64,000 nucleotides of DNA from an uncultured Candidatus Saccharibacteria bacterium. Its GTDB lineage: Bacteria; Patescibacteriota; UBA1384; JAGGWG01; CAZAJM01. Under the pieces are notes generated by a model. It had not been told where the DNA came from, searched no databases, and worked only from the letters and a program-made list of their open reading frames with translations. The translations under genes and the position numbers were made by a program. Numbering within the stretch: the stretch's first letter is position 1; every line of letters starts with the position of its first letter. The stretch spans positions 36,167 through 100,166 of the forward strand of contig CAZAJM010000002.1 in assembly GCA_964485625.1 (NCBI GenBank), read 5' to 3'. This document shows, in pieces, positions 1,982 through 34,296 of this stretch.

Positions 1982-2000
1982 GGAGCGAAGCGACGTTTGA

Positions 2001-16348: not shown

Positions 16349-16359
16349 GTTTGTTTGTT

Positions 16360-18195: not shown

Positions 18196-18942
18196 ATGGA
18201 TCAAAAACTACTTAAGGCCCTATCTGGGCTTAACCTGTCGGATAATGAGTCTAGAGTATATATAGCCGCTCTAGAATTGGGTTCAGCTACTGTTTCTCAG
18301 ATAGCTAAAAAAGCTGGTGTGGAGAGGGTTAATACATATAATGTTATAGAGAAGCTGATGAGTAAGGGTTTTGTCTATCAGACTGGAGAAGGAAAATTGA
18401 AAACCTACTCCGCCGTTAGCCCTAAAAGATTAGAGGCAATATCAAGATCTAGAACAGAAAATCTTAAAAATGCCCTACCCCAATTACTATCAATTGAAAA
18501 CTCAAACGAGGTTAAGCCTAAGGTTAGATATTATCAAGGCATTGAAGGAATCAAGGAGGCTTTTGAAGAAACCTTAAAGTGCGATAAAGATGAAGAAATA
18601 CTGGCGGTTGCTACCGCTGAAGGAATATATCAAGCATTAGGAGATTGGACCAGTGAATATTTAAAAAGAAGGATAGAGAAAGGTATTAAAATGAGAGCTA
18701 TAGTCGATAATTCAAAAATAGGTAAAAAGCATAAATCTAACGACAAACAGGAACTACGTACTACAAGATTAGTTGATAAGGATAAGTTTTATTTTTCTAA
18801 TGAGATCAATATATTCGATAATAAGGTAATGATCGTTTCCTATAAAGACAAGATGGGTCTAATAATTGAATCTAAACAAGTTGCCGACACTCAAAGATCG
18901 GTATTTGAACTAGCCTGGAAAGGGGCAAATAATAAATCTTAG
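18196..18942 (+). CDS. TrmB-family transcriptional regulator
   Basis: N-terminal HTH LSDNESRVYIAALELGSATVSQIAKKAGVERVNTYNVIEKLMSKGFV matches the TrmB/archaeal sugar-regulator wHTH pattern. A C-terminal domain follows. Confidence 0.65.
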   Translation: MDQKLLKALSGLNLSDNESRVYIAALELGSATVSQIAKKAGVERVNTYNVIEKLMSKGFVYQTGEGKLKTYSAVSPKRLEAISRSRTENLKNALPQLLSIENSNEVKPKVRYYQGIEGIKEAFEETLKCDKDEEILAVATAEGIYQALGDWTSEYLKRRIEKGIKMRAIVDNSKIGKKHKSNDKQELRTTRLVDKDKFYFSNEINIFDNKVMIVSYKDKMGLIIESKQVADTQRSVFELAWKGANNKS

Positions 18943-21900
18943 TAGCCAATATGGATATGGTTCCACATATGATTATTAGAAAACAGCCCTCTATTACCAC
19001 GCTCTTCTAAGGAGCCATATTTATCATAGATTAGATTAGGTCGATCTTGGTCTTCTTCTCCCTCATCGCTTAACCCATTGTAGTAGTTAACATCTTCTTC
19101 TCTAAAGACCCCTATTTGAAGAGGTAGATCTTCGGCTCTTAGAGTCCAGCCGACCAGCTCTCTAATATGTTCTCTGGTGATCTCGGTTGGGTCTTGGCAT
19201 TTAGTCTCACCGATTCCCAACAAATTACTCAAAACAGTGACTCCTAATTCATACCAATTCTGTGTTACTAAACCGACTATTAATCCACGACTAAAACCTC
19301 TAATTCCAGTTGCCTCATCTATCTCCTCTCCAATTCCAATTTGGTAGGCCATATAGCCGATGGTGCCGACTCCGACCTCCCCACCGCTAATAATACTCTC
19401 TGCTGCTCTAGCAGACTCAACCACATCTCTGTCAACGCCAAAGCTTGTTGCTAGTTGTGTATAGAACTCTCCTTCCTCTAAGTTTCCGTTCTGGAAGCCT
19501 TGGTAGATATCTCTTATCTGCCTTGCTTGACCAACTGTTATACCGGCAAATTGTTGGAACTCATCATCAAAGAACATCTCAGTCATCTCCAAGTAATCTA
19601 GATCTCCTTCAATTACATTTACTACTGCCGGATCTACTACTTCAAAACTACTGTTTAGAACACTGATTAATCTTCCGTCACCTACATTGCCATCTTCCCA
19701 GCCATTATAGGTTTCCTCAATTGCATCTATCTCGGCCCTAGTTAGGCCAATTGCGCCATCGAGCCTTAAATCTATCCAGCTACCGATTAGGGTCTGTTGG
19801 GTCTGATCTTTTATTACCTCTTGGTTAATTTCATCGAAGGCACTATCGATATTTCCGTTAAACAAGTTCGTTAGAACGGTTCTATCAGTAACTGTTGAGC
19901 CAGAAACCCCAACAAAGCTAAGTCCGGCCTCTAGGTACTCATCTTGGCCTATCTCCTCTCCCCTAATATATGAGCGGTCAAATAGATTGGAGAGAACATT
20001 GGCTTGGCTACGATTACCGTCAGTTAGAATTAGAGAGAGTCTCTCCATCCCTGCCGAGAGGGCCCGGTCTCTAGATTCCGGGTCGTTAGTAATTTGAGAT
20101 AGGGCTAGGTCTTTAGGCCAAGACAGTTCCTGCCCTAGATACCTGTCATATAGCTGGGATAACCCAGTGATTAATTGGTTGTTATCTACGTTGCCATTTA
20201 GAATTAGATCAGCGATATTAACGTCTATGTCCGGCCTTTCATCTAGGCCAACTAAATCAGCCAGTTTCTTGTTGCTTAAACCAAATAATTGAGCTTGGGC
20301 AACCCTGCGGGCATAATCTTCGGCTTTTATCTCTCCTTGATAGAGCCTGTAGGTCAACCCTCTATCTAAACCCAAAGATGAATCGGCCCAAGAGAGCTTA
20401 TCTATAACGGTCTGGTCCGGCACCTCATCAGTCTCAATTATCTGATCTAGTTCTTCAACAGAGATGTTAAAACTTGCCGCTACCCGTTCTTTGCCGTTCT
20501 GCTTAATGATCTCTTCCATATCGCCAAAAAATGAACCACTAGTTAAGCCTTTGCTCTCAACTATGGCTTGACCTACCTCTAACTTGATGTTTTTACTTGG
20601 CCCATCATACTCCCACTCATCAAACCAGCCATAGCTATTAGTGTTATCGACTCCCAACCTCTCAAGAATTAAGGCTAGTCCGGCCCTGGCAATTGCTTCG
20701 TCTGTATTAGAGCCCCCATCGACTATCGCCATAAAACTATTGCCCGGCAGACCTAGTTCGGTCTCGACATATGATGAACCGATTCGATTGACTACATCTT
20801 GCCAGTTACCGTCTTTGATCGAGTGGTAGTCATAGATTGTTGGTTGGTAGTTGCCAAAGTTAGGTCGGTATTGGTAGAAAAGCTCTTCTTCCAAACTACT
20901 TCCTGCCAATTTAATATATTCATTTAATCTTTCTTTGTTGGTTAACAGGTTTTTTAGATCTTCTGCTCCGACTTGGTAGTAATCAACCCCCGTAAGTTCG
21001 GTTAATTTTTCCCGAGTAAGATTATCTATCTGCTCGTCTTTAATCCGCTCAATTACATCTTGGCCTAAATTCTCTAGCCCCTCTTCTCTTCTCTGGTCAT
21101 CCTGGTTAGCGATAATTGATTGGACTTGAGCTTTGGAGATACCCAAAGGCAGGCTGATCTCTCCTGAGCTTATCAGACTATTTAGAAGATCAAGACTAAT
21201 ATCTTGACTACTCTCTTGATTATATGGATCTATTCCTAGGGCTCCTGATAGATGGTAGAGACCGGCGGTTAATAGTGAACTCTCTTTACTACTAGATAGA
21301 TCTGAGATTGTATCGCTAGGCAGGCCAATGCTCTTACTAAGCCCGGATAAACTTTGGGAGTTATTAACTCTAGTTCGGTAGGCCTGACCGACTAAGCTAA
21401 GCGTCTCATTGTTACTGCCCCCCAAGCTCTCTATGCCGGTCTTTCTAATAAACTGGTTGGGGTTGGTGTTAATTATTTTCTCTAGATTGTCCTCGCTATA
21501 ATCAATCCGGTAAGCGTTCTCTACTACTGCCTTGCCTAGCTCATAGTTGCTCCAATCTCCCTGCCAGTTAGAGTAGTCCAGACCTAGACCTTCTCTAATC
21601 ACCCGCAGGCCAATAGACTTTAGAATATCTTCTTGGCTACTGCCTTCTATTGAGCCTCCGGGCAGACCCAAGATCTGTTCAAGATAACGGCTACCAACAC
21701 TTAACTCTCCACTGCCGCTCCCGGCAACTATGGAGTTAATGGTGCCAGAGGGTAGGCCTAGCCCGTCTTCCAGGTGGGCCGAACCAAGATTGGGGCTATC
21801 AAGACGACTATTAATTAAGTACCTAGGATCTATGCCTAGTTCTTGGGCGATTTGAGATAGGCCCGATTCCATTAGGGCCGAGTCGATATTATGATGACCT

Positions 21901-23465
21901 CTTTGGTTACCAGGCAGGCGAATAACGGAAGCCAGATCATTTAAGTTGGGGTTTAGGTAGTTGTTAAGCCCGGGTGGCCGGTACTCTGTTTGATAAGCTA
22001 CATGTGCCGGATACCATTTGGTCTTATCACCAAATCCTAAAAAACCCTTAGTCTCACATTTATAGCTACCAACTACAGAGATATCGGCCGCTTTGCCCCC
22101 GTAGTGGGCTGAGCGGGTCGCTTCAGACTCACTAGTTACCGCCTCTTCATCTGACTTGGGGTCAAATTGAGTTAACCGGGAAACTTTAATCTGTGACCAC
22201 TTTTTAGAAGGTTTGGTAAGCTCATCTATTTTTTTAGTCCGAGTGGCCTTAGGAGACTTAATTATCTGGTAGAGTTCATCTTCGTCCACTTGATTAACTC
22301 CAACTCCCTCGTTCTCACCTTGGGCTCTCCGAGCAAGCTCATTAAGTAGTCGTAGTAATCTAATATCTATTTTAAACTCTTTGATTAGGCGAAGATCGTA
22401 TTGATTAATTGCTAGAACCGGCTCTTTCTGCCCCCTGTTAACTGCTTGGAGGGCTTTTAGAATATTTTGATTGTACTCTGATAGTAGGGTTAGGTCATCT
22501 CTTAAGCCTTCGTTGTCTGCTAAGCTCTGGCTACTATTAAGATCGGAGATGGTTGATTTGATTAGTTGGTGATTATCCAATGCCATCTCCAGGCTGGCTC
22601 GATTCCGGCCACCCATAGCTGATAGAGCAGAGAAGTTGGTTAAAATCCGATCGGTCTTAGTAGATAAGTTCTTTATTTCCCTGCTAAGCTCTTGCTTGTC
22701 TTGAGCCCGGGCAAATTGCCAGAAGCTGGTCTGGCTATCTGTCTCCTCGCTCTCCTCTTCCACTTCTTCATCAATTCCTTTAGCTACCTTTCTGGCCTCA
22801 TCGGCCGCCTTGTCACACTCGCCTGCCCAACAGACCGCCTCGGCCACATCTTGCCTGTCAGCAGCTAAGTCCTCATCTGGAAGCTCGGTTGGGGTTGAGC
22901 CCATATTACTAGCAAGATATATCAGGCCAAAAATTAATATTACTGCTAATAAAACCAACCCAATTATTGCAGCATATTCACCAATAAAAGCAATAGCCGC
23001 TCCGGCTCCTCTAGCAATAGCTCCACCGGCCCTACTAAGCAAACCCCCGGCCTTGGCTGCCTCCTTGCCACCCTTGGCAGCTTTGGCGGCATCTTTTGCC
23101 TCCTTCTTAACTGCTTTCTCACCTACATCCTCTGCTTTATCTTCAGCCTCATCTTTCGCCTTCTCTCCTAGGTCACTATCGTCTTTCTCCTGGTCTTCTT
23201 TCTGGTCCTTTTCTTCTTGATCTTTCTCTTCTTCTTTGTCCTCCTCCTCTTCCTTCTCATCCTGCTCTTCTTCATCTCTCTCTTCATCCTCATCTTCTTC
23301 TTGCTGCTGGTCTTGTCTGCCAACAGAAGTAGGCTTCTTCTTTAGGCGCTTAATAGTCTCTTCTGTGATCTCTGTCTCCTCTGTTTTTTCAACGTCAAGC
23401 TCCGTTTTAAGACGTTCGTAGTAACTATCTTCTTCTCTTTTTTTCTTTTTTTTATCTTTAGCCAT
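18939..23465 (-). CDS. Giant membrane-anchored surface protein (1508 aa): acidic/Lys-rich cytoplasmic N-terminus, one TM helix, about 1300-aa extracytoplasmic region. Last gene of the T4SS-like operon.
   Basis: Continuous ORF. N-terminal 150 aa are E/D/K low complexity. TM AIAFIGEYAAIIGLVLLAVILIFGLIYL at about 160-187. No enzymatic motif recognised. Confidence 0.6.
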   Translation of the reverse strand: MAKDKKKKKREEDSYYERLKTELDVEKTEETEITEETIKRLKKKPTSVGRQDQQQEEDEDEERDEEEQDEKEEEEDKEEEKDQEEKDQKEDQEKDDSDLGEKAKDEAEDKAEDVGEKAVKKEAKDAAKAAKGGKEAAKAGGLLSRAGGAIARGAGAAIAFIGEYAAIIGLVLLAVILIFGLIYLASNMGSTPTELPDEDLAADRQDVAEAVCWAGECDKAADEARKVAKGIDEEVEEESEETDSQTSFWQFARAQDKQELSREIKNLSTKTDRILTNFSALSAMGGRNRASLEMALDNHQLIKSTISDLNSSQSLADNEGLRDDLTLLSEYNQNILKALQAVNRGQKEPVLAINQYDLRLIKEFKIDIRLLRLLNELARRAQGENEGVGVNQVDEDELYQIIKSPKATRTKKIDELTKPSKKWSQIKVSRLTQFDPKSDEEAVTSESEATRSAHYGGKAADISVVGSYKCETKGFLGFGDKTKWYPAHVAYQTEYRPPGLNNYLNPNLNDLASVIRLPGNQRGHHNIDSALMESGLSQIAQELGIDPRYLINSRLDSPNLGSAHLEDGLGLPSGTINSIVAGSGSGELSVGSRYLEQILGLPGGSIEGSSQEDILKSIGLRVIREGLGLDYSNWQGDWSNYELGKAVVENAYRIDYSEDNLEKIINTNPNQFIRKTGIESLGGSNNETLSLVGQAYRTRVNNSQSLSGLSKSIGLPSDTISDLSSSKESSLLTAGLYHLSGALGIDPYNQESSQDISLDLLNSLISSGEISLPLGISKAQVQSIIANQDDQRREEGLENLGQDVIERIKDEQIDNLTREKLTELTGVDYYQVGAEDLKNLLTNKERLNEYIKLAGSSLEEELFYQYRPNFGNYQPTIYDYHSIKDGNWQDVVNRIGSSYVETELGLPGNSFMAIVDGGSNTDEAIARAGLALILERLGVDNTNSYGWFDEWEYDGPSKNIKLEVGQAIVESKGLTSGSFFGDMEEIIKQNGKERVAASFNISVEELDQIIETDEVPDQTVIDKLSWADSSLGLDRGLTYRLYQGEIKAEDYARRVAQAQLFGLSNKKLADLVGLDERPDIDVNIADLILNGNVDNNQLITGLSQLYDRYLGQELSWPKDLALSQITNDPESRDRALSAGMERLSLILTDGNRSQANVLSNLFDRSYIRGEEIGQDEYLEAGLSFVGVSGSTVTDRTVLTNLFNGNIDSAFDEINQEVIKDQTQQTLIGSWIDLRLDGAIGLTRAEIDAIEETYNGWEDGNVGDGRLISVLNSSFEVVDPAVVNVIEGDLDYLEMTEMFFDDEFQQFAGITVGQARQIRDIYQGFQNGNLEEGEFYTQLATSFGVDRDVVESARAAESIISGGEVGVGTIGYMAYQIGIGEEIDEATGIRGFSRGLIVGLVTQNWYELGVTVLSNLLGIGETKCQDPTEITREHIRELVGWTLRAEDLPLQIGVFREEDVNYYNGLSDEGEEDQDRPNLIYDKYGSLEERGNRGLFSNNHMWNHIHIGY

Positions 23466-23468
23466 TTG

Positions 23469-24770
23469 TTAATAGTTTTTAGAGATTAATTCAAGGCTAA
23501 CTAACTGATTATCTGTAGTTAAATATATTTGGTTGTTATTATTATCTACCTCGACCTCTCTAACTACCTCCTTATTATCCTCTGGCCAGCCATACTCTAG
23601 TAGTTCTCCACTGTTAATATCGTATCTAAACAATTTATCTTCTTCGTCGATTCTGCCTGTTCCAATAAACTGGTTGTTGCTGACCCAGTCGATATTGTTT
23701 AGATCTAGATTAATATTTAAATTCTCCTTATTCTCACCACCTATATCCATAATCGAAAGAGGTTTTAGTCTTTCTGGGGATTGACTTAGGTAGAGAATCT
23801 TCTTGCTATCAGCACTTACCTGGGCCCAGCTAATTTGGCTGTTCTCTAGTGGTGTCCGGAGCCGATCCAAGTAGCTATCATAGATTGAGATACTTTCGCT
23901 GTTACTAATTAGAATATATTCCTTGTTTGGTGACCAAGATATCTCTGGGTCGGTATAACCACTAATCTTAGCTACCCTTCTAACATTTTTTCTCTCCAAG
24001 TCACTTACCACTAGAGAGCTCTCTGGCTCTAGGGTTGAATAGTAGTAGGCGACCTGGTCAAGATCAGGATTAATACTGATACTACCAATGCCGGTGCCCC
24101 AAAACTTAGCTGTTTGATTGAGTAGGTCGTAGCGATTAAAATCATAGAAATATGTAGCAGCACTAGAAGTATCTTTAAAAAATTTAGTGCCGGTTAATTG
24201 GTAGGGCTTATCTATTTGGGCGATAACTCCTAGGTGATCTTTGGTCCAGATAAGGTTTTTAATGTTTCTAAAGATATTTGGAGAGATCCTTTCGGGGTTA
24301 GCCCCATCTCTTCCTAGATTTAATCTCCAACAAGAGCTGTTTTTAAGATAGAAGAGGGTGTTTCTGTTTGAGTCGTAGCTTAGATACTCTATCTTACCCT
24401 TATCAAGCTCATTAAACGACGGCTCTTTCTGCAGATTTACTTTAATTGGCTCGTTGGAGAAGTAGTCGACATTAATTGTCTGTCTGTAAGTTAGATATCC
24501 AGGAGCGGAGATCATTAACAGGTGCTCTCCGGGGCTGGCAGAGAAGCCCTTGTCAACCTCTCTGTTATCCAAAGCTATACTGACCTCTTCTGGTTGGCTA
24601 ATAACTTTAACTGGTGCCTGGTAGAAAAAAAGCAAGTAAAGACCACCAAGCACCAGAACAATTGCTAGGCCGATAATTGCCCTATTAAGCCAACTTAAAC
24701 CAGCTCCTGACTTTTTAATCTTCTGGTTGGTGCTAAACTCCTTCTCTAACTTTTCTAACTGTTTATTCAT
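23469..24770 (-). CDS. Membrane-anchored TolB-like / PD40 beta-propeller protein with a PEGA-like domain
   Basis: N-terminal TM LAIVLVLGGLYLLFF. The LLMISAPGYLTYRQTINV segment resembles a PEGA domain. Repeated ...SWSPN.../...ILY.S... propeller-like blades. Confidence 0.45.
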   Translation of the reverse strand: MNKQLEKLEKEFSTNQKIKKSGAGLSWLNRAIIGLAIVLVLGGLYLLFFYQAPVKVISQPEEVSIALDNREVDKGFSASPGEHLLMISAPGYLTYRQTINVDYFSNEPIKVNLQKEPSFNELDKGKIEYLSYDSNRNTLFYLKNSSCWRLNLGRDGANPERISPNIFRNIKNLIWTKDHLGVIAQIDKPYQLTGTKFFKDTSSAATYFYDFNRYDLLNQTAKFWGTGIGSISINPDLDQVAYYYSTLEPESSLVVSDLERKNVRRVAKISGYTDPEISWSPNKEYILISNSESISIYDSYLDRLRTPLENSQISWAQVSADSKKILYLSQSPERLKPLSIMDIGGENKENLNINLDLNNIDWVSNNQFIGTGRIDEEDKLFRYDINSGELLEYGWPEDNKEVVREVEVDNNNNQIYLTTDNQLVSLELISKNY

Positions 24771-25932
24771 GAGAGTAGATTATTGTTCCACTTGAATCAG
24801 TGTGAGACAGATTACTTGCTTGATTGTATAAAGATCTATCTAACTGACAGCTATAGGCGCCTCTTGTTGTTGAACTATTAACCATAAGTGTATCTGTTGC
24901 TGGATCGTAACCTCTTATCACTATGATGTGACCATAGCTTGATCTTGATCTTTGGCAATTTGAATTGAAGTGGAATCTTTGGAATAATATTACAGGATTT
25001 TTTGCTTTAAGTGATTTCATAACAGTCGACCAACCATTTCCATTGGAGCTTACTCTGCCAACCTTCCAGGCTTTGCCACTTTGTTTTTTTAGTTGAGACA
25101 ATGCTGCTGAGGGAGTGTTAACTGGCCCACCTGAGTATGTATCATCTATTGTCCAGTTACCACCGTAGTAATTAAGCACCATGGCAACCGAAGCTCTGCC
25201 ACAAGTCATACTTGTCTTTTGACCAACTAGGGGCACATTAAGTTTAACATAGTCTCCTCTGATAATATTAGAGGCAGTAGCCGTTTTTAGACTTGGACAA
25301 GAGCCAATAATTTCATTAAAAACTTTAGGTACTACATCAAACCAATGATTGCAATTTTTTCCGCAATATATTTCTCCTATCGACCTAATGTCTGTTATTC
25401 CTTTGCTCAGATATTTTCTTTGCATATATTCAGCATGATTGGCAATTGAGGTATCGTAGTCCGGAAAATCCTCCCAGTCTCTTGGATTAGAACCATTAGA
25501 AGGTACACAAGGATAATCTCCTAATTTAGCAGTATTGCAAGTCATGCTTTGGTAATTATGAGTTGAGGATGAAGCTGCTCCGTAGTTAGTGGCATAAGTT
25601 GTTTCAGCGCCAGCAATAGCAATCATCAGGGCCGGATTCACATTATACTTCTTTCCCTCCCCGGCAAAAATTAACCCCTTATCGGCTAGAGGAGAGTCCG
25701 GTCTTTTTTTAGAAAACCAAGAGTTAAGACATTTTCCGACCTCTTCTGGATCGGCTCCTGAAGGATAGAATAGGCTGCCACTACCACCAGCCTGGGCTGA
25801 GGGCATATACCCACCAGCAATGCCGGAAGTTCTTTCGTGAAATGCAAAAGCGCCAACTGCGCCAAAGATTAGCATGGCGATACCAATAACAAAGACAATT
25901 ATTGTGGCTACTAACCCATCCTGTCTTATCAT
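24763..25932 (-). CDS. Membrane-anchored cell-wall hydrolase: N-acetylglucosaminidase-like domain plus C39/papain-like cysteine peptidase domain (CwlT/PrgK/TcpG analogue)
   Basis: The start is placed at the ATGA overlap with the upstream gene (MIRQDGL...), not the longer ORF-track start. Glucosaminidase-like VNPALMIAIAGAETTYATNYG...SIANHAEYMQRKY. Peptidase part QKTSMTCGRASVAMVLNYYG (Gln/Cys) with GHIIVIRGYD (His). Confidence 0.6.
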   Translation of the reverse strand: MIRQDGLVATIIVFVIGIAMLIFGAVGAFAFHERTSGIAGGYMPSAQAGGSGSLFYPSGADPEEVGKCLNSWFSKKRPDSPLADKGLIFAGEGKKYNVNPALMIAIAGAETTYATNYGAASSSTHNYQSMTCNTAKLGDYPCVPSNGSNPRDWEDFPDYDTSIANHAEYMQRKYLSKGITDIRSIGEIYCGKNCNHWFDVVPKVFNEIIGSCPSLKTATASNIIRGDYVKLNVPLVGQKTSMTCGRASVAMVLNYYGGNWTIDDTYSGGPVNTPSAALSQLKKQSGKAWKVGRVSSNGNGWSTVMKSLKAKNPVILFQRFHFNSNCQRSRSSYGHIIVIRGYDPATDTLMVNSSTTRGAYSCQLDRSLYNQASNLSHTDSSGTIIYSHE

Positions 25933-26627
25933 GGCGCCCTCCAAGCATAACCGACTTGATCGTGAGGATTTTTTAGGAAAAATGATCTGGATATCCATTG
26001 TACGCTGCAAGAACTCTTGCCGCTATTGTGAACTAAGAAGGCATCTTTGTTTTTATCATATTGAGTAGTTGCCATAATATGCATAGTTCCACCGGTGCCG
26101 TTTCTTTTGGGATACTTGGTATAGATAATGACAGCGTCGCCATTTCTAATGGTGTTAATTATGCTGTTCATACCATCGTTTTTATAACTTGTTCTTCTTG
26201 TCCAACTCCCCGGAACCTTTCTTTGTAGTTCAGGACCCCAAGGCCTTCTTCCACCTGACCAATAAGTAAGATCTGTTGGTTTTATGTATTCTCCGGTATA
26301 GCCCATAATAATAGCGGCAGCAGAGGTACAGCCACAGTAACCGCTTTTGAATTGTTTTAGGCAGGGTATATAGTGGTTGTTTGGGTCACCATTAATATAT
26401 GAGCCATCACCGGCTACAGATTCAATATTAACAGGTTGGTTAGGATCTGACGCAATATACTCTCCTTCTGAGGGGCTAAACCCGGCCCCAGCCACAGGCG
26501 AGTAACTAGCCAAACTAACTCCTGCTGCTATGGCTAGGTCAACCAAAAGAATGCCGGCTAAGATAAATATTCCGGCGATTAGGCAACTTACCGCTCCAGC
26601 TTGCTTATTCTCCCTGGCTCTCATCAC
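25929..26627 (-). CDS. Membrane-anchored papain-like (C39-like) cysteine peptidase domain protein
   Basis: N-terminal TM. GYCGCTSAAAIIMGY (catalytic Cys context) and MHIMATTQYD (His), resembling the C39-like fold of the next gene. Confidence 0.45.
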   Translation of the reverse strand: MMRARENKQAGAVSCLIAGIFILAGILLVDLAIAAGVSLASYSPVAGAGFSPSEGEYIASDPNQPVNIESVAGDGSYINGDPNNHYIPCLKQFKSGYCGCTSAAAIIMGYTGEYIKPTDLTYWSGGRRPWGPELQRKVPGSWTRRTSYKNDGMNSIINTIRNGDAVIIYTKYPKRNGTGGTMHIMATTQYDKNKDAFLVHNSGKSSCSVQWISRSFFLKNPHDQVGYAWRAP

Positions 26628-28404
26628 CCTCCTCCTCTTTCATCTCTAGGATCTCCTTGGGATCAGTGGTAATCATCTTGTCTTCAATATATGAGCCGAT
26701 GACTTTGATAGCGGCATGGTTTAGACCGGCAAAGAAAAGCCCTTCACCTACATCTGATTGGAGTAGTAGATATCTTTCTCCTTGGGTTAGATTAAATGTT
26801 TTGCTAACTAGATCGATTGATGACGGAGATTGTTTGAGCAGCATCTGTAGGGAGGAGTTAGAGACAATCGCCTTGCCATACTTGTTATTAAGCACATCTT
26901 CTACATCTTGACTGACCACGGTTAGACCTAAGTAATATTTTCGAGCCCTTTTAGCTAGAGCATAGAGGAACTTAGCTGAATCTTCATGTTGCATCATCCA
27001 CCAGGCCTCATCGACGACCATCAGTCTTCTTTTCTTCTCTTTTCTAATCTGGTTCCAGACGTAACCTAGAATATTGTAGATCGCCAGTGGTCTTAGCTCT
27101 TCATCTAGGTCTCTTACGGAGAAGACATTCATCTGGTTGTTCATATCGATGTTGGTCTGGTGCTTGAAGAGGCCTGAGAAGGTACCCTGGGTATACTTCT
27201 CTAATCTTCTAGCCAGGCTCTCACCATCCTTCATACCGGTTAGTACTCTCTGAAGATCTTCCAGTAGAGGTGGCTCGTTCTTGTGGGTCTCAATATTTTC
27301 GTTAATATCTTTTAGGGCATATGTTTCAAAGAGAGCTTTCTCTAAAATAGCATCTTCTTCTACGCTTAAGCCCTCCATCATCAGCCCGACTAAACCTTTG
27401 ATTCTAATAATAGTGCCTTTTAAGATTGCCTCCCCATCTTCTTCTTGGCCACCGGAGAGATCAAATGGGTTGATCCAATTGCCGGCCTCTAGGTCAACCT
27501 GTAAGTAGTTACCACCAATTCCTTCACACATCCGCTTGTACTCTTCTTCCGGGTCAACTACTATTACCTGCGTGTCATACATCATCGATCTAATAATCTC
27601 TAGCTTAACAGCGTAGGATTTTCCCGAACCAGACTTACCGAAGACAACTGAGTTGGCATTCTCCAGTTCAAAGCGGTCAAAGATGATAAGGGAGTTGTTG
27701 TTACGGTTGATTCCATAAAGAATACCACTGTTACCAGTTAGATTGGAAGAGATAAAGGGGAAGGTAGAAGACAGAGAGCCGGTATCAAAATTACGATTAA
27801 TCATTAATTTGTTTAGTCCTAGGGGAAGGGTTGAGTCAAAACCATCTTTCATTCTAAAGAGGGCTCTTTTGGTTAGAACGATTCCTCCGGCTAAGCGAGT
27901 CTCTATCTGAGAGGTGAGAGTATCTAGTTCCTCAAGGGTTTTAGCATAGATTGTAAAGTAGAGCCCAAATTGGAAGAGCTTAACCTCTCCTTTCTGTAGG
28001 GCATGCCTTAGGGATTCAACATCTTCCATAGCTGTTTCAAGCTCTGGGTCGGAGACTAGGCCCTTCTCTTTTTTCATTCGCCAACTCGATTCCATCTGGC
28101 CCAGCCTGGTCTGGAGTTGTTTCATGATCCGCTTGGTGTCTACCGGATAGACAAACATAGATATATCCATGGTAGCATCGTAGTTAATTAGGGGGGAGAG
28201 CCAGTTGGTGTTTAGATATCTTGGGTAGGTAAAGACAAAGAAGGTTTTAGCATAACGATCATTTATCTTGATATGATCGGGATTAACCAAAAAACTAGCT
28301 GGAGCGATTAGGTCTTTAACCTCAATCATTCCCTTCTCGTAGATCTCCAGGGCTTTCTGGGGGCTTAAGTCGTCATTTTTCTTCTTCTCGCCAATGCCAA
28401 ACAT
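26605..28404 (-). CDS. virB4: VirB4/TraE/ConE-type type IV secretion ATPase (ATPase core)
   Basis: Walker A VVFGKSGSGKSYAV. Walker B RRLMVVDEAWWMM (the DEAW motif typical of VirB4). 599 aa. Confidence 0.8.
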   Translation of the reverse strand: MFGIGEKKKNDDLSPQKALEIYEKGMIEVKDLIAPASFLVNPDHIKINDRYAKTFFVFTYPRYLNTNWLSPLINYDATMDISMFVYPVDTKRIMKQLQTRLGQMESSWRMKKEKGLVSDPELETAMEDVESLRHALQKGEVKLFQFGLYFTIYAKTLEELDTLTSQIETRLAGGIVLTKRALFRMKDGFDSTLPLGLNKLMINRNFDTGSLSSTFPFISSNLTGNSGILYGINRNNNSLIIFDRFELENANSVVFGKSGSGKSYAVKLEIIRSMMYDTQVIVVDPEEEYKRMCEGIGGNYLQVDLEAGNWINPFDLSGGQEEDGEAILKGTIIRIKGLVGLMMEGLSVEEDAILEKALFETYALKDINENIETHKNEPPLLEDLQRVLTGMKDGESLARRLEKYTQGTFSGLFKHQTNIDMNNQMNVFSVRDLDEELRPLAIYNILGYVWNQIRKEKKRRLMVVDEAWWMMQHEDSAKFLYALAKRARKYYLGLTVVSQDVEDVLNNKYGKAIVSNSSLQMLLKQSPSSIDLVSKTFNLTQGERYLLLQSDVGEGLFFAGLNHAAIKVIGSYIEDKMITTDPKEILEMKEEEGDESQGE

Positions 28405-28405
28405 A

Positions 28406-29146
28406 TTATTTACTTTCTTTTTTAGATTTAATTACCGCTCCCATCACATCTTCCGGGTTAGCTATTTTTTTGAACTGAGCCGAGGTTGGGTTGTAGGAGG
28501 TGTATAGTAGCTCAATAATCTCCTGGGTGTTAAGCTGGACTGCTCTGATGCCAATAGAGCTTAGCCCAGAGGCTACCAGGCCTGCTCTCTGTCGCAGTTC
28601 TTTCTTCGCCGCTTCCTTATCTTTGATCTCTATCTTCTTTTTCTGTTTGCTCCTAAAACCGGCAAATAGTTTCTCAAAAGGATTTAAGGCCTTAGAGGAG
28701 ATTGGTTCATAGGGGACAACAACGAAGAAGTTCTTATCCATAATATTGGCAACATCGATTATTCGACGGACAAAGTCGGTATAGTCGGCCATCTGAGCCC
28801 GGAGTAGACTATTGGATTGGTTCTTGGTCCGCTTCTCCAGGTCTTGTAGATATCCTGTTAAGTTTAACTTTCGAGATTGAGTAATAATTTGAATGGGGAA
28901 GGAGAGAGAGTTGAGAAAAGCTTGATAGCCACCGATAATAGCGTTCTGTTCCTCCTCGTTTTTTAAGGAGAAATTAACGGCCGAGACCATTAAGACGATT
29001 CTTATGCCTCCGTTTTTTAAATAAACAAAACCATCCTCAATCCGATCGATATCCAGATTCTCTTGAGTTGGATTATATTTAGTCTCCGTAGACTCTTCTA
29101 GGCCCTCCGGGACTTCTCTGTCTTTCTCTTCTTCTTTCTTTGCTAT
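28406..29146 (-). CDS. VirB4 N-terminal-domain-like protein. Probably begins upstream of the first ATG at a non-canonical start near 29146.
   Basis: ORF track gives 28406..28990 (194 aa). The same frame stays open upstream to a TAA at 29156-29158 and encodes ...NPTQENLDIDRIEDGFVYLKNGGIRIVLMVSAVNFSLKNEEEQNAIIGGYQAFLNSL, which resembles N-termini of Gram-positive conjugative VirB4 proteins (pattern recalled from memory). A perfect SD AAGGAGG sits 4 nt before an ATA codon at 29146-29144. The gene ends 1 nt before the virB4 ATG. Confidence 0.45.
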   Translation of the reverse strand: MAKKEEEKDREVPEGLEESTETKYNPTQENLDIDRIEDGFVYLKNGGIRIVLMVSAVNFSLKNEEEQNAIIGGYQAFLNSLSFPIQIITQSRKLNLTGYLQDLEKRTKNQSNSLLRAQMADYTDFVRRIIDVANIMDKNFFVVVPYEPISSKALNPFEKLFAGFRSKQKKKIEIKDKEAAKKELRQRAGLVASGLSSIGIRAVQLNTQEIIELLYTSYNPTSAQFKKIANPEDVMGAVIKSKKESK

Positions 29147-29189
29147 ATTCCCTCCTTAATTAATATCTGCCTTCTAACTTCTAATTATA

Positions 29190-29723
29190 TCACACAGCCT
29201 CTACTTCGTTTAATGGATCTTCTAAGCCCTCTTTTCTCTCTTGGGGTGACTCAACTCTGCCCTCCGGTTCATCTTCACTGACCACCCTCTTGCCCGTATC
29301 TCTATGCCGCCAGCCGTGGGTATCGACAATCTCCGCTAAAATCTGTAGGCGGCTACGGACCTTTTTGGGGTCTTTAGTTAGCTGGTCGTCATCTTCCTCC
29401 TCATCTTCTTTAGCAATTTTAGGTAGCTCTTGCCCTTTTTTAAAGTATTGCTTTGTCCAGACGAAGATCTTGGGAGAAAAAACAAAAGAGATAAAGGCGG
29501 ATAGAAAGTAAGCAAAGTCTTGTTCTTGAACTTTTAAGAAGGCGAAGGCCAGAGCAGCGGCAGTGATTAGAAAGATTAGCAACCAGCCGGACCAATGGGT
29601 AAAGGTAGAGTAGATGATATAGTCGAGCATGCCGGCTACCAAAAGAAAAATGAACTGCTTTAAAGTCAGAGGCCCAATCACCTTATCTTCCAAGTCTATA
29701 TTTTGTGGGACTTTGTATTGCAT
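29190..29723 (-). CDS. PrgI-family (VirB3-like) two-TM protein
   Basis: N-terminus MQYKVPQNIDLEDKVIGPLTLKQFIFLLVAGML matches the PrgI-family signature (VP.[DN]I...E.K.iGp.TlrQ). Two TM helices. Immediately upstream of the VirB4 genes. Acidic C-terminal tail. Confidence 0.6.
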   Translation of the reverse strand: MQYKVPQNIDLEDKVIGPLTLKQFIFLLVAGMLDYIIYSTFTHWSGWLLIFLITAAALAFAFLKVQEQDFAYFLSAFISFVFSPKIFVWTKQYFKKGQELPKIAKEDEEEDDDQLTKDPKKVRSRLQILAEIVDTHGWRHRDTGKRVVSEDEPEGRVESPQERKEGLEDPLNEVEAV

Positions 29724-29726
29724 AAA

Positions 29727-31814
29727 TTATTCATTTAGATTTTCTTCGTATCTACTTAATTCGCTAATTTGCTCTCTAATTACCTCTTCTATGGTTGAGC
29801 TCTCAATTCTTCCTTCGCTTATCTCCCTAGAAAGAGCCCCTATTATTTCATCAATTCTCTCTTCGGGGATATCTCCTACAGCTTCATGTTCAAGGGTTCT
29901 TTTAATCTGTTCCTTTATCTCTTTTCTGGTTGCTAATTCCTGAGTGGTAATGCCTCTAGTTTCAGTGCTAAGCACTTGAGTTGGTCTTGGGGCGTCAGCA
30001 ACAGTTCTGCTAATAGCAGTTGCTCTGGTGGAAATAGTATCATTTAAACCTATTTCTAGCGCTAATTGTTCGCTATTTGGAGCACTTCCAGTTCGACCTA
30101 CATAACTTTTAAATGCTGGTGCAGATATTGAATAATTAGAAAGTGCTCCCAAGGCACTTTCTTTGGTGTGAACCATATCTTCAGGAAGGCCCGTTACACT
30201 TACCACACGATCTACTACACTGCTTTCTAGATCACCCTCACTTCTATTTTTTATTTCGGCTTGGAGTTCTTCGATGTTGGTAATTGTTACATCAATGTCT
30301 TCTTGGCTTCTAAGGTTATCAATTGTTGCTTCAGCTATTAAATCGTAATTGCCCCCTCCTATCTCCAGGCCTGCCATTTTTTGCAAATTTTTAATATCTT
30401 TATCACTAATTTTTTCAAATAATATACCCTTTTCATCATTTATCATTTGTTGCCCGGCAGTTGTGCTAGGATCATAAAATCCCTTGCCTTTACCTGAAGC
30501 TTCACCTATACCTTGCAGTAAGCTTTTTATAAGTGGTTTGTCGTCTTTGTAATCCGGATCATTAAACATCATACCGAGGGCTCTTATTGCTGCGGTTCTT
30601 GTGTCTGCGTTGCCAGCGTAGAGTGCTCCAAGTGCGCCCTCGATTCCTCCATTTTTGATGTTCTCAGCTGAAGACATCGCTTTATCATGATATTGGGTCC
30701 TTAGCATCTCTTGACCAAGCCTATGTTTTTCCCAGCTCTTCCTAACACTTTTGCCTGTCTCTTTTGACTCAACTTCCAAGGCATTTTCTAGTATATCATC
30801 AATATGCTTTCCCCCTTCTAGACCCTTGTTAATATTACTAAAAAATCTACCAGCACCTACTGCCTGATCATCATCTCCCAATTTTCGACTGCCTACTTTT
30901 GCTCCCCACTTTAAAAAACCCCCAGCCCTTCCTAGCGATTTAGATACAGTTTCTCCAGCTTTTCCTTTAAAAAAACCTAGAACAGCTCCAGAAATGCTAT
31001 TCATACCAACTATTTGATAGGAAATTATTAATGCGGCTATGATTAAAACAATGCCACCGATAAATCCTCCCCAAGGAGTATCGCTGGCTTGCACTTGCAA
31101 GACATTTATCAACCAGACTGAAATAAATATTACCGGACCTACTAGTAAGAATTTTAAAAACCAATCAAACCATATCCCAGCAATGGATTTTCCTAGTGGA
31201 ATGAAGTACAGAACTACGGCGACAGGAGATAGGACGAACAGTATAACTATTACGTAGTATCTAACATATAAGATGAAGGTGAGCATCACCCAGAGAATAA
31301 GAGGAATTAACAAGAGTAATGCCCCGACAATTATCAAGGGAAGGCCGAGTGCTCCAACATAGGGAAAAAACAAGGCGATTACCCCAGTTAAAGTAAAGAT
31401 TCCGCCAACAGTGGTTTGGCCAGTCATGGAACTATAAAGTATCTCACCAATTCCATCCCCAGGACCAGCTAATTGAATAAAAAAATCAGTAACGGAGCTT
31501 ACAATATCTACAACTTCAATAATTAGAAAATAGCTAAAATTTGCTAGAATTATTCCAACAATAAGTCCAGGTAGCGTTCGTTTGATGTCATAGGTTTCTA
31601 AATCAATTCTAAGTAGATAAGCTAAAGCAATAAATATTAATCCAACTACGGCAACAAAATTAACCAGCCCAAGCACAACACTCCAAGCCTCTTCCATCCC
31701 TGCTGATCTAAGCTCTCCGGCAATTCTTGGATAGCCATACGACAGGTTCGGAACAGTTAAAGCTGCCATTAAAAAGAAAAAAATAATTAACTTTTTTATT
31801 TTACACAGGAACAT
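29727..31814 (-). CDS. VirB6-like polytopic membrane protein with a large C-terminal soluble domain
   Basis: Signal-like N-terminus, at least 6 hydrophobic helices within the first about 280 aa, then a roughly 400-aa hydrophilic domain. Position next to PrgI/VirB4, as for VirB6/ConG/PrgH analogues. Confidence 0.5.
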   Translation of the reverse strand: MFLCKIKKLIIFFFLMAALTVPNLSYGYPRIAGELRSAGMEEAWSVVLGLVNFVAVVGLIFIALAYLLRIDLETYDIKRTLPGLIVGIILANFSYFLIIEVVDIVSSVTDFFIQLAGPGDGIGEILYSSMTGQTTVGGIFTLTGVIALFFPYVGALGLPLIIVGALLLLIPLILWVMLTFILYVRYYVIVILFVLSPVAVVLYFIPLGKSIAGIWFDWFLKFLLVGPVIFISVWLINVLQVQASDTPWGGFIGGIVLIIAALIISYQIVGMNSISGAVLGFFKGKAGETVSKSLGRAGGFLKWGAKVGSRKLGDDDQAVGAGRFFSNINKGLEGGKHIDDILENALEVESKETGKSVRKSWEKHRLGQEMLRTQYHDKAMSSAENIKNGGIEGALGALYAGNADTRTAAIRALGMMFNDPDYKDDKPLIKSLLQGIGEASGKGKGFYDPSTTAGQQMINDEKGILFEKISDKDIKNLQKMAGLEIGGGNYDLIAEATIDNLRSQEDIDVTITNIEELQAEIKNRSEGDLESSVVDRVVSVTGLPEDMVHTKESALGALSNYSISAPAFKSYVGRTGSAPNSEQLALEIGLNDTISTRATAISRTVADAPRPTQVLSTETRGITTQELATRKEIKEQIKRTLEHEAVGDIPEERIDEIIGALSREISEGRIESSTIEEVIREQISELSRYEENLNE

Positions 31815-33261
31815 TGTTTAGTAGATTGTTTAATATATTAAAAATACTTTCAACTATTTCGTTTACCCACTTCTTTAATTTTTCCGTGATTGATTTTAAA
31901 AATTGATTACCCCCCTTTAAGCTTCCTCTATCAGTCTGGTCATCAACAGTTAGCATTAGTGAATTAAAGTTCTCTCTCTCTTTCTTTACTATTTCCAATA
32001 AATTTTCATCTTGAGAAGCTAAACACTCTCTATATTCGATATATTTGCTTAAATAGTTTGAGGCTAGATAAAGTTTTTCCCAATCTTTTTGTTGATTTTG
32101 GTTATAATTAAGTAGTCCAAGCAGGACATCTGGGGTTACCTCACTTAGTTCTGTTACACAAGTTGCCAAATCAACAAACTTATTATATTTAGATGTTTCG
32201 CTGTTAACTTGATTTGATATAGCGGTTTTTGTTAATCCAGATTTACTTTTTCCGGTACAATAAGGTATTCGATCGACAATTTCTTCATGATCAGCCCAGG
32301 CACTAGTTATTGTTTTTTCTGTTTCATGTATTATATTATTCATTTGTTGATAGGTGCCAGTGTTTATACTAGACAAGCCTGCATTGGCAAAGAAGCTAAG
32401 AAATAAATTTTTATCCTCTTGGAAGCTAAGAAGCAATAAGTCTGGGTCGTCGAATATCACATTGTTGTTTTCTGACCACCAATTATTAGCTTGCTTTTTT
32501 ATTTGGCTAATAATCTCTTTCCCATTGTCTTGTGCTTGATAATTATTTTCCAAATTTTTGTTAGTGCAATAATCAATTGCATCTTGAGAGGCTTCTCTTT
32601 GATGTAAATTATCAGTTGTATTTAGCTTGGCCCCATTAGCATAAATGTCTTTGGATAATTTTGCTAAAGTAGGATTATCTTTTTCATCAATAATATCAAA
32701 TTTATATGTTTGAAACGGTCCAGTGAACCATTGGAGCTTCCTAACTATTTCGTCTATAACATTAGTTGTGTCAGGTTGGTTGTATTGAAAAGAGTAATCA
32801 GATTCATCCCTGTCTGTGTGTTTTACCAGAGCCAAAACAGATTTGTTGGATACAAATAACACGCTTCTTTTATCACTTTCCAGTATGTACCAATTTGCAT
32901 CTACCATTCTGTTCGCTGAAAGCGGATCATTCGGGTCAAACCTTTCTGTTGATCTAGGAGGCTGCCCTCTGTATAAAGATCCTAGACTAGAAGCTGGCCC
33001 CTTGAAATAATAGACTTTATCAGTATCATCAATTGTCAATTTTATTTTTTTAGTATCTGATTCCGGCTCTATAATTAGGTCAAACTGATAATCTCTAGAG
33101 TAGCTTAAACTGGGTAAGTCATCAATATTAATACCTTTTGTTTTTGTCGGATTTATTAAAATTATAGACGTAACAAAAACCAATAAAACAAAAATAGGAA
33201 AAAAAGCTAGCAACAAATTTTTTGTATTTTTTTTATTGTTCTTTCTGTTTTTTCCTTTCAC
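31801..33261 (-). CDS. Bitopic membrane protein (486 aa), unknown function. Possible VirB8-like scaffold analogue.
   Basis: Basic N-terminus, single TM LLLAFFPIFVLLVFVTSIILI, large extracytoplasmic domain. Translationally coupled within the cluster. Confidence 0.4.
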   Translation of the reverse strand: MKGKNRKNNKKNTKNLLLAFFPIFVLLVFVTSIILINPTKTKGINIDDLPSLSYSRDYQFDLIIEPESDTKKIKLTIDDTDKVYYFKGPASSLGSLYRGQPPRSTERFDPNDPLSANRMVDANWYILESDKRSVLFVSNKSVLALVKHTDRDESDYSFQYNQPDTTNVIDEIVRKLQWFTGPFQTYKFDIIDEKDNPTLAKLSKDIYANGAKLNTTDNLHQREASQDAIDYCTNKNLENNYQAQDNGKEIISQIKKQANNWWSENNNVIFDDPDLLLLSFQEDKNLFLSFFANAGLSSINTGTYQQMNNIIHETEKTITSAWADHEEIVDRIPYCTGKSKSGLTKTAISNQVNSETSKYNKFVDLATCVTELSEVTPDVLLGLLNYNQNQQKDWEKLYLASNYLSKYIEYRECLASQDENLLEIVKKERENFNSLMLTVDDQTDRGSLKGGNQFLKSITEKLKKWVNEIVESIFNILNNLLNNVPV

Positions 33262-34296
33262 TTATCCCTCCTCTTTTAGTGAGTTTGCTTTTAGCTGCAT
33301 CTGCTTAGCAGTCTCTGTTTCGTTTTTTGATTGGTAGGCTTTGGAGAGCAGCTCATAGGTTAGGCTGTAGCTGGGGTCTAGCTCCTTAGCCTTATTTAAA
33401 TTCTCTATTGCTTGATCAGTTTGGTTCTCTTGAATCTGGCCATAAGCTAGAAAGACATAGCCATCTCTTAGATCCGGATATTCTGATATTAACTCCTCTA
33501 GTTTAGCAGTGGCTAGACCGGACTCCCCTACCTGATTAAGCAGTTGGCCTAAAAGTAGCTTTCTAGTGGCTGGGCTATTGGTGGCTAGCATTCTTTTAAA
33601 AGCGGTCTCTATTTGCTGGCAGTCTTCCTTGGTTGCTGCTAGAACAGACTTCTCTAAATTGCTAAAGCTTACTTCTTGGTTTTTGGAGTATTTCTCGATT
33701 TGCTCATAGCCATTTTCAACATCTCTGTAGGCCAGTACTAATCCGAGGTAGAGATTATAGTCAGCTGAAGGGAAGATCTCTAAGGCAGCTTGGAAACTCT
33801 CTTCTGCCTGTTTGAGCTGATTCTGGTTCATCTGGGCCCTACCTAGCCAGTAATATATTTCACTGTTGGTCGGTTCATAGGCGAAGCAATTTTCAAAGTA
33901 GCTCTGAGCTTGGGCGTAATCTTTTTGATTGTAATAGGTTTTGGCTAGAGCGAAGGTGGGCGCCATCTCTTCTCTGGCAAACTGGATTGACTTTTTGTAT
34001 GAGTCTATTGCCATCTCTGTCTGGCCTATCTTCTCAAGCACTCTGCCTTGGTGGTAGTAGGGGGCAAAACTTCTGGGGGTGGCCATCTGAGCTTTCTTGT
34101 ACTGCAAATAGGCCTGTTTGTACTCTTGGCTCTGTTCTAATTCTTGACCTTTAGCTAGATAATCTTCGGCCAGACTAGCTCTTTTGCCATCCATTAGAAA
34201 CCAAAAAGCACCAAACAGGATAAGAATTGATAAAAAAACAATTAAACCGATCTGTAATCCTCGATTTTTCATAAGCTTGAGTTTATTATAGCACAA
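33262..34296 (-). CDS. TPR-repeat membrane-anchored protein
   Basis: N-terminal TM. At least 6 TPR-like 34-residue repeats (A..Y...G......A...Y..AL...P). Its stop abuts the next gene (1-nt gap). Confidence 0.6.
   Translation of the reverse strand: MCYNKLKLMKNRGLQIGLIVFLSILILFGAFWFLMDGKRASLAEDYLAKGQELEQSQEYKQAYLQYKKAQMATPRSFAPYYHQGRVLEKIGQTEMAIDSYKKSIQFAREEMAPTFALAKTYYNQKDYAQAQSYFENCFAYEPTNSEIYYWLGRAQMNQNQLKQAEESFQAALEIFPSADYNLYLGLVLAYRDVENGYEQIEKYSKNQEVSFSNLEKSVLAATKEDCQQIETAFKRMLATNSPATRKLLLGQLLNQVGESGLATAKLEELISEYPDLRDGYVFLAYGQIQENQTDQAIENLNKAKELDPSYSLTYELLSKAYQSKNETETAKQMQLKANSLKEEG

Follow-up and report, generated by a model that had tools for sequence, protein, structure and literature searches.

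The question raised by the gene block at 18939-34296 (minus strand) of the DNA of an uncultured Candidatus Saccharibacteria bacterium analysed here (64,000 nt, contig CAZAJM010000002.1, positions 36,167 to 100,166; hereafter the window) is whether its type IV secretion system (T4SS)-like genes belong to a conjugative element or form a machine with another role. The initial annotation of this DNA described a dedicated machine for host interaction rather than a conjugative element, which matches the T4SSs published for Patescibacteria (PMC12102498, PMC10633639, PMC12857230). From the homology of its components, we consider it very probable that the block is a chromosomal T4SS of Patescibacteria (candidate phyla radiation), derived from conjugation machinery of the monoderm mating-pair formation (MPF) type FATA and re-used for interaction between the bacterium and its host. 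The system as such is already published; the locus adds no new kind to it, and the new points are minor ones.

ORF calling confirmed the coordinates and strand given initially, and revealed ten tightly packed open reading frames (ORFs); the count of eleven genes was not reproduced. With the most plausible starts, the spacings along the block are 0, -14, +3, +43, +1, -23, -4, -8 and +3 nt, the 43-nt spacing lying between the PrgI gene and the TrsD-like gene. According to transmembrane segment (TM) prediction, each of the accessory proteins has one N-terminal hydrophobic anchor. From the first gene to the last, the block contains:

33262-34296, minus strand: membrane-anchored TPR protein, 344 aa, first gene of the block (TPR profiles and TM)
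31801-33261, minus strand: 486-aa orphan protein, p486 (no family match; N-terminal TM)
29727-31814, minus strand: VirB6-like polytopic membrane protein, 695 aa (homology to a TrbL-positive family member)
29190-29723, minus strand: PrgI-family VirB3-like protein, 177 aa (PF12666)
28406-29146, minus strand: TrsD/TraC-like protein, homologue of the VirB4 N-terminal domain; ORF with a canonical start at 28406-28990, 194 aa (NCBIfam TrsD)
26605-28404, minus strand: VirB4 ATPase, 599 aa (NF045971)
25929-26627, minus strand: membrane-anchored C39-like cysteine peptidase, 232 aa, putative wall endopeptidase (Peptidase_C39_2 and TM)
24763-25932, minus strand: membrane-anchored bifunctional Gluc-C39 hydrolase, with a weak glucosaminidase-like N-terminal domain and a C39-like cysteine peptidase (Peptidase_C39_2; sub-threshold glucosaminidase)
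23469-24770, minus strand: membrane-anchored protein with a PEGA-like part and a TolB-like beta-propeller, 433 aa (sub-threshold PEGA; family profile)
18939-23465, minus strand: giant membrane-anchored protein, 1508 aa (TM; motifs; no Pfam match)

The identical ten-gene block, in the same order, is present on two metagenomic contigs, L082 and L083, and on the latter it directly abuts recF-dnaN-dnaA.

The VirB4 protein exceeds the equivalog cut-off of the NCBIfam model NF045971 (conju_CD1110, VirB4-like conjugal transfer ATPase; 372 bits, cut-off 325) and matches P-loop_TraG (E = 8e-26); its closest PDB match is 4AG5, the C-terminal domain of a Thermoanaerobacter VirB4 (E = 2e-42). It contains the Walker A (GKSGSGKS, aa 256) and Walker B (VVDEAW, aa 463) motifs named in the initial annotation, and covers positions 184-728 of the 752 positions of NF045971, the usual N-terminal domain being missing. 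The assignment of the PrgI-family protein was likewise confirmed (PF12666, E = 7e-11, 42.9 bits, cut-off 27); it carries the quoted motif KVPQNIDLEDKVIGPLTLKQ at aa 4 and ends in an acidic tail. The earlier view that the component set corresponds to no textbook MPF type had to be abandoned, as VirB4 passes the cut-off of the CD1110 (MPF-FATA-type) model and the whole set has the published Patescibacteria layout.

The previously proposed "split VirB4" is the known, separately encoded TrsD component. A protein resembling the missing N-terminal domain does precede VirB4, but this is not a peculiarity of the locus: TrsD, with 2,272 homologues in the phylum, is the commonest component of these systems (PMC12102498). 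The 194-aa ORF matches NCBIfam TrsD/TraD (E = 2e-6) and the N-terminal positions 136-284 of the VirB4_plasma model (E = 3e-9), and its orthologues on L082 and L083 carry the TraC-like domain PF26593. The 200 nt between the PrgI gene and this ORF are coding: they encode a conserved TrsD-like N-terminus of approximately 52 codons, including the peptide NPTQENLDIDRIEDGFVYLKNGG, which aligns with the N-termini of the orthologues on both contigs. The frame opens after a TAA codon (29158-29156) and offers no ATG, GTG or TTG before 28990, while the GTG start of the L083 gene is replaced in the window by ATA at 29146, four bases behind AAGGAGG. Judging from this alignment, the gene probably comprises 247 codons with a non-canonical ATA start; either this rare start is used, or the protein is N-terminally truncated in this genome. 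Gene callers restricted to ATG, GTG and TTG will shorten the gene here.

The 695-aa protein contains at least five hydrophobic segments within aa 1-275; its C-terminal half, some 400 aa long, is hydrophilic and variable, as in the "extended VirB6" type. Neither Pfam nor PDB sequences gave a match to the window protein itself, and nothing meaningful was found when its family profile was compared with PDB sequences. Its residues 14-322 are homologous (E = 5e-10) to a protein of another VirB4-bearing locus, L012, that passes the Pfam TrbL/VirB6 model PF04610 (27.2 bits, cut-off 25.9); two of the 24 family members match TrbL. We read the protein as VirB6-like, as was done initially, because it is homologous to a TrbL-positive member, polytopic and sited upstream of PrgI.

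Searching species-representative genomes with VirB4 yielded 80 loci (52-61% identity). Most are labelled as Patescibacteria (Saccharibacteria, Berkelbacteria, Doudnabacteria, Falkowbacteria, Parcubacteria and others), and many of the remaining ones as "uncultured Gammaproteobacteria" or unclassified. TrsD is adjacent in 78-80 of these loci and PrgI in 73-75, and a VirB6-like gene lies upstream of PrgI in 42; the propeller protein occurs in 19, the Gluc/C39 hydrolase in about 8, and true homologues of the giant protein in 6. The best plasmid VirB4s, from Firmicutes and Actinobacteria, are 30-38% identical. We placed the protein in the Patescibacteria clade on the basis of its profile score and these pairwise identities (52-61% vs. 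30-38%).

Patescibacteria T4SSs were first noted in Nanosynbacter lyticus TM7x (McLean et al. 2020, PMC7427843) and have recently been reviewed as newcomers to the T4SS superfamily (2025, PMC12857230). In a survey of 3,035 Patescibacteria genomes, Quinonero-Coronel et al. (2025, PMC12102498) recovered a VirB4 clade that is sister to MPF-FATA, together with PrgI-type VirB3 and VirB6, often near dnaA and dnaN. In Southlakia epibionticum, transposon sequencing showed the cluster SEML1_0006-0019 to be essential for epibiotic growth, in the absence of a recognisable coupling protein or relaxase in the cluster (Wang et al. 2023, PMC10633639). Before the Patescibacteria system, no T4SS had been shown to be essential to the bacterium encoding it. 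According to the tables of that study (PMC10633639), dnaA, dnaN and recF are followed by SEML1_0004 (prealbumin-like) and 0005 (PEGA protein), and then by (i) SEML1_0006, an essential protein combining glucosaminidase (PF01832), phage-tail lysozyme and cysteine proteinase, (ii) 0007, a 1113-aa protein with a Hedgehog/DD-peptidase domain, (iii) 0008, VirB4, (iv) 0009, unannotated, whose position matches TrsD, (v) 0010, PrgI, (vi) 0011, a "type IV secretion system protein" (weak match), (vii) 0012, NTF2-like, (viii) 0013, VirB6-like, and (ix) PF18895 pilins from 0014 onwards.

The window cluster shares with this locus its chromosomal position beside dnaA-dnaN-recF, on the opposite strand, and, with Patescibacteria T4SSs in general, a VirB4 without its N-terminal domain, a separate TrsD-like protein, PrgI/VirB3, a VirB6-like protein and the lack of a relaxase and coupling protein in the cluster. 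Common to both loci are also a PEGA or PEGA-like protein, a protein with lysozyme/glucosaminidase-like and cysteine-peptidase parts, and a large protein with a Hedgehog/DD-peptidase-type element, a candidate one in the window. The PEGA, hydrolase and giant proteins are not unusual additions, as proteins of these types flank virB4 in Southlakia (SEML1_0005, 0006 and 0007), where they are essential. The two loci differ in the order after virB4 (DD-peptidase protein, lysozyme/peptidase and PEGA in Southlakia; C39, Gluc-C39, PEGA-propeller and giant protein in the window). Southlakia possesses an array of PF18895 VirB2-like pilins and an NTF2-like (VirB8-like) gene, neither of which adjoins the window cluster, whereas in the window PEGA is fused to a TolB-like propeller, and a TPR protein and the lineage-restricted p486 are encoded upstream of the VirB6-like gene. 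The locus may be viewed as a compact, pilin-less variant in which a conserved motor (PrgI-TrsD-VirB4) is clearly split from fast-evolving surface genes.

Compared with MPF-FATA systems (TrsC/TrsD/TrsE/TrsG of pGO1, PrgH/PrgI/PrgJ/PrgK/PrgL of pCF10, CD1110 of C. difficile CTn2 and the plasmid locus L084), the cluster has in common a CD1110-family VirB4, a PrgI-family VirB3, TrsD-like and VirB6-like polytopic proteins encoded upstream of virB4, a large membrane-anchored peptidoglycan hydrolase encoded right after it, and the lack of an outer-membrane core (VirB7/9/10). L084, located on a Pontibacillus megaplasmid, is the nearest plasmid locus; pilin-like, 116-aa and 274-aa genes precede its VirB4, and a gene for a 1050-aa peptidoglycan DD-metalloendopeptidase follows it. 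Unlike these systems, the window cluster resides in the core chromosome and not on a plasmid or integrative conjugative element (ICE), has no relaxase, type IV coupling protein (T4CP), origin of transfer (oriT) or PrgB-type adhesin, encodes a VirB4 with just 30-38% identity to theirs, and includes additional propeller, TPR and orphan proteins. Non-conjugative T4SSs that function without a VirD4-type coupling protein are exemplified by Bordetella Ptl and Brucella VirB; these are, however, diderm MPF-T systems with VirB7-VirB11 and a pilin, and beyond VirB3, VirB4 and VirB6 their parts are not homologous to those of the window.

Family profiles were run against every other ORF in the 64-kb window that reaches 100 aa, and the negative results hold for this span: no relaxase, VirD4/TcpA-type coupling ATPase, integrase or pilin-family protein was detected, and no direct or att-like repeats bracket the cluster, which bears out the absences listed in the initial annotation. 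The claim that the cluster prolongs the same-strand run of tsaD (36430-37446) and valS (34320-36407), both located upstream, was also correct. On the other side, dnaA (11366-12754), dnaN (13006-14124) and recF (14154-15260) lie 3.7-7.6 kb past the last gene of the cluster. The G+C content is even across the window and the cluster does not deviate from it. Scans for promoters and terminators gave signals at chance level, and G+C skew was set aside as a marker of the replication origin because it merely follows the coding strand here.

Among the accessory proteins, the TPR protein, recognised as such initially, was strongly supported (TPR_8, TPR_2 and TPR_1, E = 1e-18 to 1e-21; N-terminal TM at aa 11-38). 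Its stop codon abuts the start of the p486 gene, and the gene is kept upstream of the cluster on L082 and L083, and two genes upstream of the VirB6-like gene in locus L008. The 232-aa protein, proposed as a second papain-like paralogue, matches Peptidase_C39_2 above the cut-off (E = 5.5e-6, 27.4 bits vs. 24) and has a TM at aa 8-44. The Gluc-C39 hydrolase, for which a bifunctional glucosaminidase and papain-like enzyme had been claimed, matches Peptidase_C39_2 with E = 1.4e-14, so the papain-like half of the claim stands; among PDB sequences it has just a match of E = 0.22, to a C39 protease domain. Its likely start, ATG at 25932, overlaps the stop codon of the preceding C39 gene as ATGA (25929-25932), while the longest ORF, starting from TTG at 26010, would add 26 unlikely residues. 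Homologues of this hydrolase are encoded directly after VirB4 in L001, L002 and L004-L009. In the 433-aa protein, the propeller part (aa ~115-430) is kept in 22 loci downstream of VirB4, and its family profile matches TolB structures with E = 1e-22, which upholds the beta-propeller of the initial annotation; PD40 repeats were detected in 9 and PEGA in 5 of the 22 family members.

In the mechanism suggested by these parts, VirB4, TrsD, PrgI and the VirB6-like protein make up, as shown by homology, a cytoplasmic-membrane translocon of the monoderm type. The two C39-like peptidases, the glucosaminidase-like domain and the giant protein may open peptidoglycan locally, that of the bacterium itself and possibly that of its host, as their domains and N-terminal anchors suggest, and the PEGA/TolB-like propeller, the TPR protein and p486 could serve as extracytoplasmic scaffold or contact parts. 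Proteins, or pilus and contact functions, would be likelier substrates than conjugative DNA, because no coupling protein or relaxase is encoded nearby.

Several observations weigh against this interpretation. No VirB2-like pilin was found in or near the cluster, which leaves no room inside it for a small gene, although S. epibionticum depends on such pilins (PMC10633639), and in the phylum they are often encoded near virB4, in 1,135 of the 1,948 pilin-bearing assemblies (PMC12102498), which makes them a frequent but not a defining part. Neither the cluster nor its immediate neighbours include a recognisable VirB8-like (NTF2) protein, and genes for a coupling protein and a relaxase could be located in another part of the genome. 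The VirB6 assignment of the window protein is a transitive one. The glucosaminidase half of the Gluc-C39 hydrolase stays below the cut-off (PF01832, E = 4e-5, 24.7 bits, cut-off 30.2), as does the PEGA part of the 433-aa protein (E = 8.6e-4, 19.6 bits, cut-off 20.8). AlphaFold2 models of p486 (8-sequence alignment) and of aa 309-1508 of the giant protein (3-sequence alignment), whose folds the initial annotation had proposed to compare, reached mean confidence (pLDDT) values of 40.0 and 40.1, respectively, too poor for a fold search. Finally, the support for a Patescibacteria T4SS comes from homology and from experiments in a different Patescibacteria lineage.

A T4SS run in reverse, similarly to Helicobacter ComB or the archaeal Ced system, might instead supply a cell that is unable to make nucleotides with nucleic acids or other macromolecules taken from the host. 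Among archaeal DNA-import ATPases, CedB (E = 6e-14) and CedD (E = 1e-6) are weakly matched by VirB4, with scores that lie far under the cut-off and are tiny beside the CD1110 match. A 2026 preprint on a cultivated relative describes feeding on host RNA, tubes that "may be T4SS pili" and a monophyletic phylum VirB4, and competence and recombination genes lie beside virB4 in class ABY1 (PMC12102498). Genes for PNPase and RNase J are present in the window, both of an ordinary housekeeping kind, and no comEC, comF or nuclease gene lies in or beside the cluster. S. epibionticum was no less viable after losing comEC, and those who studied it lean towards export or a different role (PMC10633639, PMC12857230). 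The direction of transport is not readable from the sequence, and on this evidence we regard uptake as unlikely.

Conjugation proper, its relaxase, oriT and coupling protein being encoded in the genome beyond the window, would be in keeping with the homology to MPF-FATA machinery, with the fact that most plasmids bearing the nearest VirB4s (30-38% identity) are typed as conjugative, and with the finding that most Patescibacteria genomes carry VirD4-like T4CP genes, generally a long way from virB4 (PMC12102498), given that our inspection covered 64 kb. Relaxases, however, occur in just 103 of the 3,035 genomes surveyed, and the t4cp homologue of S. epibionticum is dispensable while its T4SS is essential (PMC12102498). 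The conserved core-genome site by dnaA-dnaN-recF, common to the window, L083 and S. epibionticum, fits a vertically inherited, housekeeping-like machine. On this evidence as a whole we regard a working conjugation system as very improbable. A decaying ICE that has lost these functions is scarcely credible: the relaxase, coupling protein and integrase are indeed absent from the window and the TrsD-like gene lacks a canonical start, but all ten ORFs are intact and tightly coupled, there is neither a G+C anomaly nor att-like repeats around the cluster, and the same core recurs across 80 Patescibacteria species. The core proteins are, moreover, 72-93% identical among three relatives, beside 78% for DnaA (window vs. 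L083), which indicates purifying selection.

Returning to the T4SS re-used for host interaction, its genes have diverged unevenly. Pairwise identities among the three genomes (window, L082 and L083, unless stated otherwise) are as follows:

VirB4: 89-93%
TrsD: 82-88%
PrgI: 72-85%
DnaA: 78% (window vs. L083)
C39 peptidase: 51-69%
Giant protein: 54-61%
Propeller protein: 52-59%
Gluc-C39: 23-44%
p486: 20-35%
VirB6-like: 94% (window vs. L083); 27% (either vs. L082)

The synteny comparison proposed initially thus revealed a shared ten-gene block in which the surface genes have strongly diverged. At the DNA level, conservation with L083 extends from the end of p486 through VirB4 (83%), and with L082 from PrgI into the C39 gene (76%). 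This pattern looks like a fixed motor (PrgI-TrsD-VirB4) flanked by exchangeable or fast-evolving surface genes. Surface-exposed parts would be evolving far faster than the ATPase core, as expected of parts that meet the host. The VirB6-like protein of the window (29727-31814) and that of L082 (1561-3690) are alignable in the membrane domain only, at aa ~8-285 (the L083 copy lies at 1576-3663), and this dimorphism suggests allele replacement or recombination inside the operon. The candidates for host specificity to which the locus points are p486, the wall hydrolases, the C-terminal half of the VirB6-like protein and the giant DD-peptidase-like protein.

We also observed that in L008 (6191-7645, HEMSH) and L009 (6995-8644, HESWH) the VirB6-like gene and PrgI are separated by a gene for an HExxH protein of roughly 500 aa, which has no counterpart in the window and may be a metalloprotease accessory.

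Word-indexed homologue searches returned three proteins for the giant protein, two for p486 and three for the VirB6-like protein, so no deep alignments could be built. A loose iterative profile search was rejected, since its 75 "PEGA" and 48 "giant" matches arose by drift through TM and low-complexity segments; strict searches yielded 22 and about 9, respectively.

The orphan p486 has no Pfam or NCBIfam match, and just ten relatives were found among 1.84 billion representative proteins, eight of them of 468-495 aa and two short (82 and 105 aa). It has an N-terminal TM, a hypervariable N-terminal half, and a conserved C-terminal half closing in an amphipathic helix (...WVNEIVESIFNILNNLLNNVPV). 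This helix is strongly conserved in the family (W-[VI]-x-x-[IL]-x-x-I-F-x-x-L-x-x-L-L-N-x-V-P-V). Most family members, though not the window protein, contain a hydrophobic stretch rich in Gly and Ala some 120 residues ahead of the helix.

The giant protein, initially described as a 1508-aa surface protein, is an intact ORF with a single TM (aa 153-191), preceded by a highly charged, acidic/lysine-rich cytoplasmic N-terminus and an Ala/Gly-rich stretch, and followed by a mostly helical ectodomain. It has no Pfam match above threshold and no meaningful PDB sequence match in a direct search, and no internal repeats were found when these were sought. Homologues of 1500-2022 aa are encoded downstream of VirB4 in L001, L002, L006, L007, L008, L051, L082 and L083. 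Two motifs stand out, SAHYGGKAAD (aa 452-461) and HIH (aa 1503-1505), separated by about 1,040 residues. The first, in the form S-A-H-x-x-G-x-A-x-D-I (aa 452-462), is kept in all nine homologues, and the terminus MW[ND]H[IV]H[IV]G[YF] in all four with a complete C-terminus.

This H-x6-D...H-x-H pattern is common to LAS zinc peptidases (Hedgehog N-domain, Streptomyces DD-carboxypeptidase, Peptidase_M15). The window motifs SAHYGGKAAD...NHIH can be likened to those of Sonic hedgehog, SLHYEGRAVD...AHIH, the first of which was also seen in a HMMER alignment. The statistical signal is weak but consistent in direction: of the 17 sub-threshold PDB matches of the giant family profile, 16 are Hedgehog N-domains aligned on the H-x6-D motif (E = 0.6-1), and similarly weak Pfam matches were obtained to HH_signal (E = 0.059) and Peptidase_M15_3 (E = 0.21); hhalign gave a probability of 51% against Hedgehog. 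A chimeric profile joining the N-terminal and C-terminal pieces matched Hedgehog and M15 no better, small contiguous "mini" proteins showed no significant hhalign similarity to the giant pieces, and a Pfam scan of these mini proteins revealed no M15 domain, with SLT domains in two proteins at the same position. In LAS members and in a small Patescibacteria protein of L014, the two motifs lie approximately 33-60 residues apart, and in Southlakia the corresponding motifs fall within one 155-aa domain; the distance in the giant protein would mean a very large insertion inside the domain. Context offers indirect support: an ECOD Hedgehog/DD-peptidase domain is present in SEML1_0007 of the Southlakia T4SS, and further context comes from the proteins encoded right after VirB4 in L011, L025 and L014, described below. 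Taken together, the motifs make the giant protein a candidate LAS-type wall peptidase with a split zinc site, for which we see about an even chance.

In many Patescibacteria loci, the gene right after VirB4 encodes a shared N-terminal module (charged coil, Ala/Gly-rich stretch and TM) joined to a swapped ectodomain. The latter is an SLT lytic transglycosylase in L011 (12250-13278) and L025 (11783-12775). In L014 (2754-3659) it contains SCHNLGEAVD and, about 60 aa further on, GGHIHMS in a contiguous arrangement, and in L013, L018 and L028 it is rich in Cys and shows the pattern more loosely, as SCHYGG...AVD...HxH.

A broader proposal, which we put forward tentatively and consider rather doubtful, is that the enzyme in the VirB1 slot is here a 1,500-2,000-aa anchored protein with a split zinc site (aa 454-461 and 1503-1505), whose helical insert may span the gap to the host envelope. 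This protein, p486, Gluc-C39 and the dimorphic VirB6-like protein would make up an exchangeable host-range cassette around a fixed PrgI-TrsD-VirB4 core.

The other ORFs of the window comprise housekeeping genes, three without a family match and one IS200-like transposase. Those that could be named include genes for a H+-translocating pyrophosphatase (H+-PPase), a trpS/tyrS-type synthetase, yidC, dnaA, dnaN, recF, a femAB-like gene, a Mur ligase, polA and holA, as well as PNPase, RNase J, dnaG, rpoD and an ABC transporter. The transposase, of the Y1 type (55331-56059; PF01797, E = 1.5e-6), is the sole recognised mobile-element gene of the window and is separated from the cluster by 21 kb.

An exact 15-nt direct repeat, AGCCAATATGGATAT, is present at 15531-15545 and 18944-18958 and brackets a 3.4-kb segment (15546-18943), its second copy being the 3' end of the giant gene (...HIHIGY*). 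The segment contains a gene for an AP-endonuclease-like TIM-barrel protein, a 447-aa ORF without a family match, a 68-aa ORF with two TMs and a gene for a TrmB-like regulator; no integrase or transposase was found inside it. The 68-aa ORF (17795-18001) was considered as a pilin gene and rejected, as it had no pilin-family match at E up to 1. The segment looks like an insertion with target duplication, because on L083 the stop codon of the giant gene directly abuts a 90-aa ORF and recF.

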